In this document: positions 24,220 through 25,948 of the stretch, piece by piece
How the letters are laid out: each line of letters begins with the position of its first letter
How positions within the stretch are numbered: the stretch's first letter is position 1
Origin: a virus
Lineage: Duplodnaviria; Heunggongvirae; Uroviricota; Caudoviricetes
Strand: one strand, 5' to 3'
DNA length: 41,620 bases
IMG/VR virus record: IMGVR_UViG_2713896897_000009
Program-made: the position numbers and the translations under genes
Notes under the pieces: model-generated
Told to the model about the DNA's origin: nothing
The model's input: the letters and a program-made list of their open reading frames with translations, nothing else
Databases searched by the model: none

Positions 24220-25467
24220 TTATGCTGCGGGTGCATTTATCTCCAGCACCAGACTTTCTATCTCAACGCCATACGCTGCATTTTTTGTAACATCCGTCAG
24301 CGTCAGCGCATTCAGCCCCAGTGTCAGACTGTCTTTTATGACCTGGAATGCCGGGCCAGCCACTCCATTCAGTTTCGGAGTAACCGTGGCACTGCCGGCG
24401 GTGAACACCAGCTCCAGCGTCTGCCAGTCGTTACCGTAATCGCCGAACTCCCCCAGCTTCGTGTTTCCGGCTTTCCTGTGATGCATCAGATTCACTCTGC
24501 CGTCAGTGGTCTGAGTGAAGTACGACATCAGGAACGGATTACCGGTACCTGTCATCGCCACACCATCAGGAACGGGAGCATCCGTATACAGATAAATCCC
24601 CAGCCCGAACTGATTGTTGGTCAGTGCGCCTGACAGGCGGAACTTACAGGTCAGTCTGCCGCCCTGTGTCAGCAGGGTAATTGCGTCATCCACCGGATGC
24701 GTCAGGGACCAGGTTTTATTGCTCTGCTTGGTGATCTTAAATACACCATCTGACAACTGAATTCCGCCATCCTTAATGCTCCAGCCCTGCGCAGCAGCCT
24801 CTCCGGCTGCCGGCAGCAGGGAGATTGTGCGAACGGACGTATCTGCAGACGGACCCGATGGCGTGTTGCCGCCGGGCGAGGGTTTGATTTCCGGTGCCTT
24901 ACCACTGATGAAGGCTGAGGTGCGCCCGGCTGCGTTCAGAATAGCGGTTGCCAGACGATCCGGAATAATGCTCCTGCGCGCCCATGAACTGAAATGTGTC
25001 TGGCGGTTTGATGATACCTGGTTTCCATTCGTTCTCGATGCCGCACCGTAATATCCTGATGCCGGAATATCCGGATCTTCTGCCGGCGCGTTAGTGGCGG
25101 TATTGACGCCGTTACCGTCTGTCATGAAGGGCACAAAATAAACGCCCTCACTCTCCCTGTTTTTATACCCGCCGTACACGGTGTCGTACTGGGTAGCGTA
25201 TGTATTTTTCCAGTAATACGTCGTGTCACCACAAACCCACGGCACATCTGCAGCACTGCCACCATGGCACTGCGCGTTAAACACGGAGAGGTCAACACGA
25301 AACTGTGTCAGCATGGCTGTAAACAGCGCAGGTTGCTGTGCGTGGGTGGCGGCGCTCATGTCAAACTCACCCTGCATCCAGCAGACGGCCAGCAGAACGT
25401 TTTTGGGATTTTTCTGCAATGCCGCTTTTGTGCGGGAAATCAGATCCTGATATAACGGCTTGCCCAC
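24220..25467 (-). pseudogene. 5'-truncated sialate O-acetylesterase-like gene (NanS-p family of Stx-phage late regions)
   Basis: ORF begins at a GTG; in-frame stop 22 codons upstream (25534..25536); retains the mid-domain CWMQGEFD block but no upstream GQSN-type serine block; long C-terminal carbohydrate-binding-like region. Confidence 0.55.
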
Positions 25468-25646
25468 CCCCCAGCGTGCCGAATCCTGACTGGCCCCCGT
25501 GGACTCGCTGATTGCCCCTCCGCACAGGGGGATTCACCATGCCAGTTTCTTTTAACAAACTCCCCGCAAAACAGACAACTGTCAACCGTCTGAATTGTGA
25601 GACATTTAAAAAAAAGGCCCGCAAAAGCGAGCCGGGAAAAATAAGT

Positions 25647-25723
25647 CTGGCGCGTTGTACTGGATTCGAACCAGTGACCGATTGCTTAGAAGGCAATTGC
25701 TCTGTCCGGCTGAGCTAACAACG
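25647..25723 (-). tRNA. argO: tRNA-Arg (anticodon UCU)
   Basis: 77-nt cloverleaf; acceptor GCGTTGT/ACAACGC, anticodon loop CTTCTAA, T-loop GGTTCGAATCC, discriminator G, CCA encoded. Confidence 0.85.
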
Positions 25724-25736
25724 CAGGGTACAGATA

Positions 25737-25813
25737 ATGGACCGCCATCGAGGACTCGAACCCCGCGCAACCAGCTTCGAAGGCTGGCGCTCTATCCCGA
25801 TGAGCTAATGGCG
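25737..25813 (-). tRNA. argN: tRNA-Arg (anticodon UCG)
   Basis: 77-nt cloverleaf; acceptor CCGCCAT/ATGGCGG, anticodon stem CCAGC/GCTGG with loop CTTCGAA, T-loop GGTTCGAGTCC, CCA encoded. Confidence 0.75.
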
Positions 25814-25822
25814 GTATGTGAT

Positions 25823-25898
25823 ATGGTGGCCCTTGCTGGATTTGAACCAGCGACCTGGCGATTATGAGTCGCTCGCTCTCACCACTGAGCTAAAGGGC
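25823..25898 (-). tRNA. ileZ: tRNA-Ile2-like (anticodon CAU, ileX-like; Met not excluded)
   Basis: 76 nt; GGCCCTTTAGCTCAGTGGTGAGAGC..CTCATAA..GGTTCAAATCC..AAGGGCCACCA, near-identical in outline to E. coli ileX as recalled. Confidence 0.8.
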
Positions 25899-25948
25899 CG
25901 CGCGCAGAATAATAACGTTACGGAATTAATACTGCAATCTCATCCGTT

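Follow-up and report, generated by a model that had tools for sequence, protein, structure and literature searches.

The late-region locus

The sequence analysed here (the window) is a stretch of 41,620 nucleotides (nt) of DNA from a virus of the Caudoviricetes (IMG/VR record IMGVR_UViG_2713896897_000009), and the locus of interest lies at 24220..25948, where a cluster of three tRNA genes is followed by what is left of a small RNA (sRNA) gene of the STnc100 family and of the phage esterase gene nanS-p. All of the relevant features, from the late antiterminator gene Q to the lysis genes, are on the minus strand, in the order Q, tR′-like terminator, small open reading frame (ORF), DNA methylase, ileZ-argN-argO, terminator, STnc100, nanS-p, holin and endolysin. 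The source contig, to which the window is 100 % identical, is BBVG01000001.1 of the draft assembly GCA_001514595.1; positions 18220..31467 of the window correspond to the locus labelled L008. An earlier reading of the letters alone (the original prediction) had proposed that the site where the Shiga toxin (Stx) genes stxAB would sit is occupied by a deletion scar. Two junctions have to be kept apart in this region. The first, J1, is the unoccupied toxin slot. The second, J2, is a real scar, separate from J1, and lies approximately 100 nt further downstream, inside the STnc100 gene. The features concerned are as follows.

24220..25502, minus strand: nanS-p remnant, equivalent to codons 187–616 of the intact esterase (alignment to intact homologues)
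25467..24220, minus strand: annotated ORF with a GTG start, 415 amino acids (aa) (ORF call and Pfam)
25503..25523, minus strand: J2, with the sequence GCGGAGGGGCAATCAGCGAGT, hybrid between the copies of an imperfect direct repeat of 21 nt (sequence comparison)
25503..25571, minus strand: sRNA gene of the STnc100 family (RF02076), of which the 5′ third remains, about 69 nt (Rfam, 36.8 bits)
25605..25609, minus strand: J1, 5 nt standing for the 1335-bp stx2AB cassette of Stx2a phages (blastn against Stx2_EH1910)
25648..25724, minus strand: tRNA-Arg(UCU), argO type (ARAGORN, tct; Rfam, 70.1 bits)
25738..25814, minus strand: tRNA-Arg(UCG), argN type (ARAGORN, tcg; Rfam, 56.1 bits)
25824..25899, minus strand: tRNA with a CAU anticodon, ileZ type (ARAGORN, tRNA(cat); Rfam, 72.5 bits)

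The junction between STnc100 and nanS-p

In every comparison, homology to the left of J2 ends at 25503 and homology to the right begins at 25523. The resulting 21-nt overlap, GCGGAGGGGCAATCAGCGAGT, is the STnc100 copy of the direct repeat, and the second copy, GCGGAGGGGACATTCAGCGAGT, is found in nanS-p codons 183–189. The two copies agree at 20 of 21 positions once a single 1-nt gap is allowed, whereas 500 shuffles of the gene never gave more than 18; where both are present (loci L004, L005 and L006) they are 807–808 nt apart. Within the window the left copy runs directly into the esterase (CCACGGGGGCC...). What has gone at J2 is about 0.8 kb, made up of two thirds of STnc100 (the 3′ part, with the terminator), the intergenic region and the first 186 codons of the esterase.

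The modules that meet at J2 have different closest relatives. The left module is closest to the ZH063 prophage (locus L007; 99.6 %), the lysis module of which is only 82 % identical to that of the window. The right module, window 25523..18876 (6.66 kb), is 98.9 % identical to Z1323HEC0422, and this match runs through the lysis genes, ANT, Rz, the TonB-like gene, HNH and terminase, reaching 99.6 % over the first 2.8 kb. Z1323HEC0422 encodes an intact 616-aa esterase, and its Q and slot cargo are unlike those of the window.

An exact search for the junction 37-mer was negative in the contig collections of viruses, species-representative genomes and metagenomes, and by short-query blastn J2 was collinear in 0 of the 5426 complete E. 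coli genomes that served as the comparison set. The exact 415-aa protein is likewise recorded on a single contig, BBVG01000001.1.

An imperfect repeat of about 21 nt with the core GCGGAGGGG...TCAGC is present in many lambdoid prophages, once in the 5′ part of STnc100 and once inside nanS-p. Its paired positions are 3424/4231 in L004, 3425/4233 in L005 (Z1322HEC0009), 4113/4921 in L006 and 5325/6226 in L001, the last pair being 901 nt apart.

What is conserved between the tRNAs (or stx2B) and nanS-p is STnc100, an sRNA gene of prophages. Full-length copies were recognized in the Stx2a phage Stx2_EH1910 (L002 6752..6967, 153.8 bits), where the gene starts 75 nt past the stx2B stop, in ZH063 (L007 7429..7628, 140.2 bits) and in Z1322HEC0009 (L005 3377..3549, 106.4 bits). 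A position 75 nt 3′ of stx2 has also been published for STnc100 in Stx2 phages (PMC12370729). The match in the window, at 36.8 bits, is below the gathering score of 47 and does not by itself qualify as a member of the family: positions 1 to approximately 67 of the 206-position model align well, the rest is forced onto esterase coding sequence, and the 3′ two thirds with the terminator are gone. Consistent with a gene cut in this way, the site of the published forward quantitative polymerase chain reaction (PCR) primer for STnc100 is present at 25541..25522 and the site of the reverse primer is absent from the window. No second STnc100 copy reaching the threshold was found by Rfam elsewhere in the window. 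AsxR and AgvB were considered as the element downstream of stx2B and rejected, as Rfam assigns STnc100 there and gives no match to either.

The order sRNA-esterase-holin-lysozyme is described as common (bioRxiv 10.64898/2026.05.13.724894) and is the intact form of this locus. In ZH063 (L007 7354..7793) the tRNAs and a full STnc100 are present without any esterase gene before the holin. Thus nanS-p is itself a presence/absence cassette in the late region.

The esterase remnant

Intact homologues of the esterase, in phage 434, Sakai Sp12, AUSMDU00014361 and Stx2_EH1910, are 616–631 aa long and start about 200 codons earlier than the ORF in the window, the frame of which is homologous to them from about residue 187 onward. 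The gene is therefore 5′-truncated, as had been proposed. In the intact homologues DUF1737 occupies residues 4–49/50 (3–50 in the Stx2a phage protein), the motif GQSN is at residues 71–74, residues 60–379 form a NanS-like catalytic domain matching PDB 3PT5 (E=1e-122), and residues 421–613 match PDB 6YP6 (‘NanS-p’), a lectin-like domain. The serine of GQSN is presumably the catalytic nucleophile of NanS-p. Neither DUF1737 nor the GQSN serine block is part of the 415-aa ORF, which matches only positions 101–157 of the 226-position SASA esterase profile and does not contain a complete catalytic domain. Features retained in the remnant are the QGE block (CWMQGEFD), the motif THFSS with the histidine equivalent to H359, and the whole of the C-terminal lectin-like DUF6645 (PF20350, E=2.4e-18); the remnant is colinear with the 6YP6-matching part of an intact homologue. 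Pfam and the homologue alignment thus bear out the earlier description of a gene that has kept CWMQGEFD and a large C-terminal domain and is missing its N-terminal serine block.

The GTG start is 180 nt from the end of argO, and an in-frame TGA (25533..25531) lies exactly 22 codons 5′ of it, the stop that had been described. The ORF said to begin about 110 bp past the last tRNA is real; however, that distance is the one to the TGA that opens the frame and not to the GTG.

Over the retained 1281 nt the remnant differs from the phage 434 gene at 8 positions (5 synonymous, 3 non-synonymous) without any frameshift. This count is too small to show relaxed selection on the remnant. With so few differences and an unbroken frame, the lesion may be young or may simply not have decayed yet. 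The lack of a Shine-Dalgarno sequence at usable distance and of the nucleophile serine suggests that the remnant is a pseudogene whose product would be unable to deacetylate sialic acid; esterase activity on Neu5,9Ac2 is predicted to be absent because the serine block is missing. DUF1737 has been identified as the capsid-binding domain of the phi24B homologue in a 2026 cryo-electron microscopy preprint (bioRxiv 10.64898/2026.04.10.717836). Additionally, nanS-p genes are reported from non-Stx prophages (PMC10462455; PMC8065619).

The toxin slot

Window 27496..25610, which covers a hypothetical ORF, the methylase, the tRNAs and the argO terminator, matches Stx2_EH1910 (L002 3497..5383) at 93.8 % by blastn, and the match stops 54 nt 5′ of the stx2A start. 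Homology resumes at window 25604..25514 (L002 6719..6809, 82 % by blastn), 42 nt past the stx2B stop. In place of the 1335 bp that hold the stx2 promoter region, stx2A and stx2B there are 5 nt in the window. A blastn search with the 1335-bp stx2AB cassette and tblastn searches with Stx2A and Stx2B against the whole window gave no protein match and only chance-level DNA matches of 12–32 nt (E>=1.5), Stx1 not having been tested separately. The window does not carry stxA and stxB and so is not that of a Stx-converting phage; it does possess a Q (PF06530), a hairpin and both stx2AB flanks, that is, Q with a downstream toxin slot.

The emptiness of the slot is not particular to this DNA. With a collinearity probe of 126 nt across the junction, the toxin-less J1 was found collinear in one piece in 1020 of the 5426 complete genomes, at 93–100 % identity and in many non-STEC lineages (STEC, E. 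coli that produces Shiga toxin). Window 28971..25503 is 99.6 % identical to the ZH063 prophage over approximately 3.5 kb without a gap. The same toxin-less J1 also stands beside an intact esterase, of 617 aa in AUSMDU00014361 and of 616 aa in Z1322HEC0009. J1 is a common inherited allele and not a scar. In Sakai Sp12 and Z1323HEC0422 the slot is filled by other cargo (TciA/TerB, DUF3927, small ORFs), the pattern that a site of moron insertion shows; the toxin slot behaves as a variable cargo site.

The original prediction is thus right in that the stx site is empty, and neither of the two observations that it named as refuting it was made: full-length homologues start about 200 codons further upstream, and argO and the esterase are 2195 nt apart in the Stx2a phage, versus 385 nt in those toxin-less relatives whose esterase gene is intact. 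The scar, however, is J2, about 100 nt downstream of the site, and the causal link drawn between toxin site and scar does not hold, given the 1020 genomes with J1, the intact esterases beside some of these copies and the 99.6 % identity to ZH063.

The tRNA cluster

Three tRNA genes of the types Ile(CAU), Arg(UCG) and Arg(UCU) had been placed downstream of Q, tR′ and a methylase, and ARAGORN, Rfam, Pfam and a terminator scan all agree with that placement. The calls are those of ARAGORN and the scores those of Rfam models. ARAGORN labels the CAT gene as Met, from the anticodon alone. tRNA-Ile2 (ileZ) has a CAU anticodon that is read as Ile once modified with lysidine. The gene in the window is identical over 76/76 nt to its counterparts in Stx2_EH1910 and ZH063, the latter annotated as tRNA-Ile, and matches at 75/76 the Sakai gene ileZ6, annotated as tRNA-Ile with anticodon cat. 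On the strength of these annotations an Ile(CAU) identity of the tRNA-Ile2 type is a reasonable reading. The argO-type gene is identical (77/77) in the Stx2a phage and ZH063, and the argN-type gene is 75/77 against the Stx2a phage and 77/77 against ZH063. With two of three genes identical and the third at 75/77, the trio is indeed the ileZ-argN-argO set located ahead of stx2 in Stx2a phages.

The trio is nevertheless not specific to Stx phages and has no discriminating value, since the non-Stx prophage Sakai Sp12 carries ileZ6-argN4-argO6 and ZH063 carries the trio too. A full-text literature search on ileZ, argN and argO together with stx returned nothing usable, and tRNAs are not mentioned in PMC6266700. 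An antisense ‘Plastid-ycf2’ match on the tRNA-Ile gene was dismissed as a below-threshold, tRNA-like artefact.

Related prophages

Stx2a phages (933W/Stx2_EH1910) have the same order of methylase, tRNA trio, argO terminator, 5′ part of STnc100, nanS-p and holin, and the methylase-tRNA segment of the window is 93.8 % identical to that of Stx2_EH1910, with ileZ and argO identical. Unlike Stx2_EH1910, the window has no stx2AB, no iraM-like gene and a different Q type; its esterase allele has 61 % aa identity to that of the Stx2a phage, and both STnc100 and nanS-p are truncated.

ZH063, AUSMDU00014361 and Z1322HEC0009 share with the window the whole architecture from DUF968/Q to the 5′ part of STnc100, with the slot unoccupied, at 99.6 % identity for ZH063 and 93–94 % for the other two. 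All three differ from it in having a full STnc100. In ZH063 there is additionally no esterase and another lysis module (82 %), whereas AUSMDU00014361 and Z1322HEC0009 have intact esterases of 617 and 616 aa, respectively.

On the other side of J2, the esterase genes of phage 434 and Sakai Sp12 have 99.0–99.4 % nt identity to the retained 1281 nt, and Z1323HEC0422 is 99.6 % identical over window 25502..22700, which holds the esterase remnant and lysis genes; it shares the downstream holin, YdfR, lysozyme, ANT, Rz, TonB-like and HNH genes. In 434, Sp12 and Z1323HEC0422 the esterase has its full 616 aa, DUF1737 and GQSN included, whereas the window is without the first 186 codons.

A likewise 5′-truncated nanS-p upstream of a class II holin is found in OkiPb01713 (L009 2785..4179) and is recorded in the NCBI annotation as a pseudogene without its N-terminus. 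It differs from the window in its breakpoint, about 90 nt upstream of the repeat, in an internal stop and in flanking insertion sequence (IS) elements. This copy is located in an IS-ridden prophage remnant beside paa and hokD.

The locus is a degraded member of a known late-region leader that is common to Stx and non-Stx lambdoid prophages.

Origin of the locus

The findings are best explained, with a probability of roughly 0.85, by a toxin-less lambdoid Escherichia prophage with a Q-dependent late operon leader, in which the stx slot is unoccupied and a separate recombination between repeats at J2 has truncated STnc100 and nanS-p. In Stx2a phages a 1.3-kb stx2AB segment would stand between the argO terminator and STnc100, and the slot in the window appears simply unoccupied, like that of about one fifth of complete E. 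coli genomes. A single recombination between the 21-nt repeats, one copy in STnc100 (5′ part) and the other about 808 nt away in nanS-p (codons 183–189), would have brought together a left module like that of ZH063 and a right module of the Z1323HEC0422/434 kind. Such an event would have cost the esterase its ribosome-binding site, start codon, DUF1737 and nucleophile serine block. The STnc100 remnant, without its 3′ structure and terminator, would be unable to form the sRNA and is probably a dead gene. Upon induction, Q-modified RNA polymerase from pR′ would be expected to pass the terminators and produce a transcript that takes in methylase, tRNAs, remnant and lysis genes. All three tRNA genes are intact and would probably remain functional and transcribed under Q antitermination. 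J2 may have arisen by an intramolecular deletion in an unsampled parent or by crossover between two co-resident prophages, either of which would give this product. In either case the locus is a product of ordinary prophage mosaicism and decay, of a kind already known.

Three points weigh against this explanation. No single genome was found that combines both parental repeat alleles with high identity to the left and to the right of them; matches extending over both sides reach 91–95 % at best, and the parent is for that reason postulated rather than observed. The ORF is open over 415 codons, so that its presumed loss of function is read from missing domains and not from visible decay. Lastly, the stx polymorphism at J1 may have arisen in either direction, by insertion in Stx phages or by an ancient precise loss elsewhere.

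The last of these points leads to the suggestion that the J1 allele derives from an old, precise loss of stx in an ancestor of the whole prophage group and that the site was not always vacant. The sharp boundaries of the cassette (1335 bp versus 5 nt) and the short similar motif ATCTG(C/T)G at both of its ends in the Stx2a phage would fit such a loss. It is nonetheless unlikely, as the allele is widespread and diverse across the 1020 genomes, many of them non-STEC, and the other cargo in Sp12 and Z1323HEC0422 is the pattern of moron insertion; the present data favour neither direction.

Expression of the 415-aa ORF, whether by a start at the GTG (25467) or by way of a chimeric STnc100′-nanS-p transcript, as a carbohydrate-binding half-esterase or lectin is quite unlikely. 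The 415-codon frame has no frameshift, its DUF6645 matches the solved C-terminal domain of NanS-p (6YP6), and it would fall within the Q-dependent late transcript. Yet there is no Shine-Dalgarno sequence at a usable distance, the G-run directly abutting the GTG, the protein would have neither the nucleophile serine nor DUF1737 with its capsid-binding role, the allele is a singleton with no sign of retention, and other N-truncated copies are annotated as pseudogenes. A wider proposal, that the 21-nt repeat shared by STnc100 and nanS-p is a recurrent hot spot which reshuffles lambdoid late modules, and that the chimeric transcript gives an altered regulatory RNA or a functional free lectin-like protein, is speculative and must be considered very improbable.

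An assembly artefact might be suspected at J2, for the assembly is a draft of a genome rich in similar lambdoid prophages and the two modules have different closest relatives. The overlap at the junction is, however, just 21 nt, imperfect, with 9-nt exact blocks and well under assembler k-mers, and BBVG01000001.1 is a contig of 347 kb that is listed under 2 samples; an artefact is therefore highly improbable. Least credible is a single deletion by which a once Stx-converting phage lost stxAB together with the esterase's 5′ end, leaving the tRNA-esterase junction as a scar of toxin loss: both stx2AB flanks are present with the cassette gone and the esterase is truncated nearby, but the two junctions are separated by about 100 nt (25604..25503) collinear with toxin-less relatives, the last 73 nt of this segment (25575..25503) are 73/73 identical to those relatives, the toxin-less junction is common to the 1020 genomes, some with an intact esterase, the flank downstream of stx is just 82 % identical to that of the Stx2a phage and so has no recent common origin with it, and no stx remnant is present in the window.

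The locus has a few consequences for annotation and typing. A tRNA-Ile/Arg/Arg cluster with Stx-phage-like flanks is no marker of a former toxin phage, as the empty slot is a common allele. The esterase and sRNA genes are due to be annotated as a nanS-p pseudogene and a truncated STnc100 gene. Where typing, by PCR or in silico, takes the stx flanks, nanS-p or STnc100 to stand for a Stx phage, the source strain would give mixed signals. In a small but concrete way, the 21-nt repeat illustrates that a mosaic joint may fall within genes and not between them. Beyond annotation the significance of the locus is little.

Other features of the late region

The genes and signals surrounding the locus are listed below.

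27563..27958, minus strand: late antiterminator Q, 131-aa ORF (PF06530 Phage_antitermQ, E=1.6e-52)
27474..27494, minus strand: terminator-like hairpin, 69 nt 3′ of the Q stop (terminator scan; 8-bp stem and T-run)
25949..26998, minus strand: DNA methyltransferase gene, 349 aa (PF01555 N6_N4_Mtase, E=1.8e-44)
25616..25633, minus strand: intrinsic-terminator-like hairpin GGCTCGCTTTTGCGGGCC with T8, directly 3′ of argO (terminator scan)
24183..24212, no strand assigned: terminator hairpin just past the esterase stop (terminator scan; in phage 434 a terminator is annotated at the corresponding site)
22787..23926, minus strand: lysis cassette, whole (Pfam and contig gene table)
23720..23926, minus strand: class II holin (PF04971)
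23371..23715, minus strand: YdfR/DUF1327 (PF07041 and contig gene table)
22787..23320, minus strand: lysozyme (PF00959)

Relatives of the Q protein are annotated at 126 aa and are labelled antiterminator Q in ZH063 and PPyecE_EH1910. From its position, the hairpin at 27474..27494 is probably tR′. The methylase gene has 94–99.8 % nt identity to the methylase genes of Stx2a phages and ZH063, and the hairpin 3′ of argO is kept both in Stx2a phages and in toxin-less relatives. A sigma-70 promoter scan gave no more matches than shuffled sequences, and neither the sRNA remnant nor the truncated ORF is credited with a promoter.

An ANT-type antirepressor gene (PF03374, 231 aa; window 21818..22513, minus strand) is located between the lysozyme gene and an Rz-like lysis gene, a placement that recurs in PPyecE_EH1910 and Z1323HEC0422. 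A small, cargo-like gene for a TonB_C-domain protein (PF03544; 20463..20804, minus strand) stands between the lysis genes and HNH/terminase, and its counterpart in Z1323HEC0422 is annotated as ‘TonB family protein’. The early region contains two RNAs that score above their gathering thresholds: the C4 antisense RNA (RF01695, 78.8 bits; 33431..33518, minus strand) and, adjoining it, the Hfq-binding RNA isrK (RF01394, 58.7 bits; 33543..33619, minus strand). The right end of the window, the integrase/xis region at 38000..41620, matches prophages of E. coli, O26:H11 among them, at 99.8 % identity.

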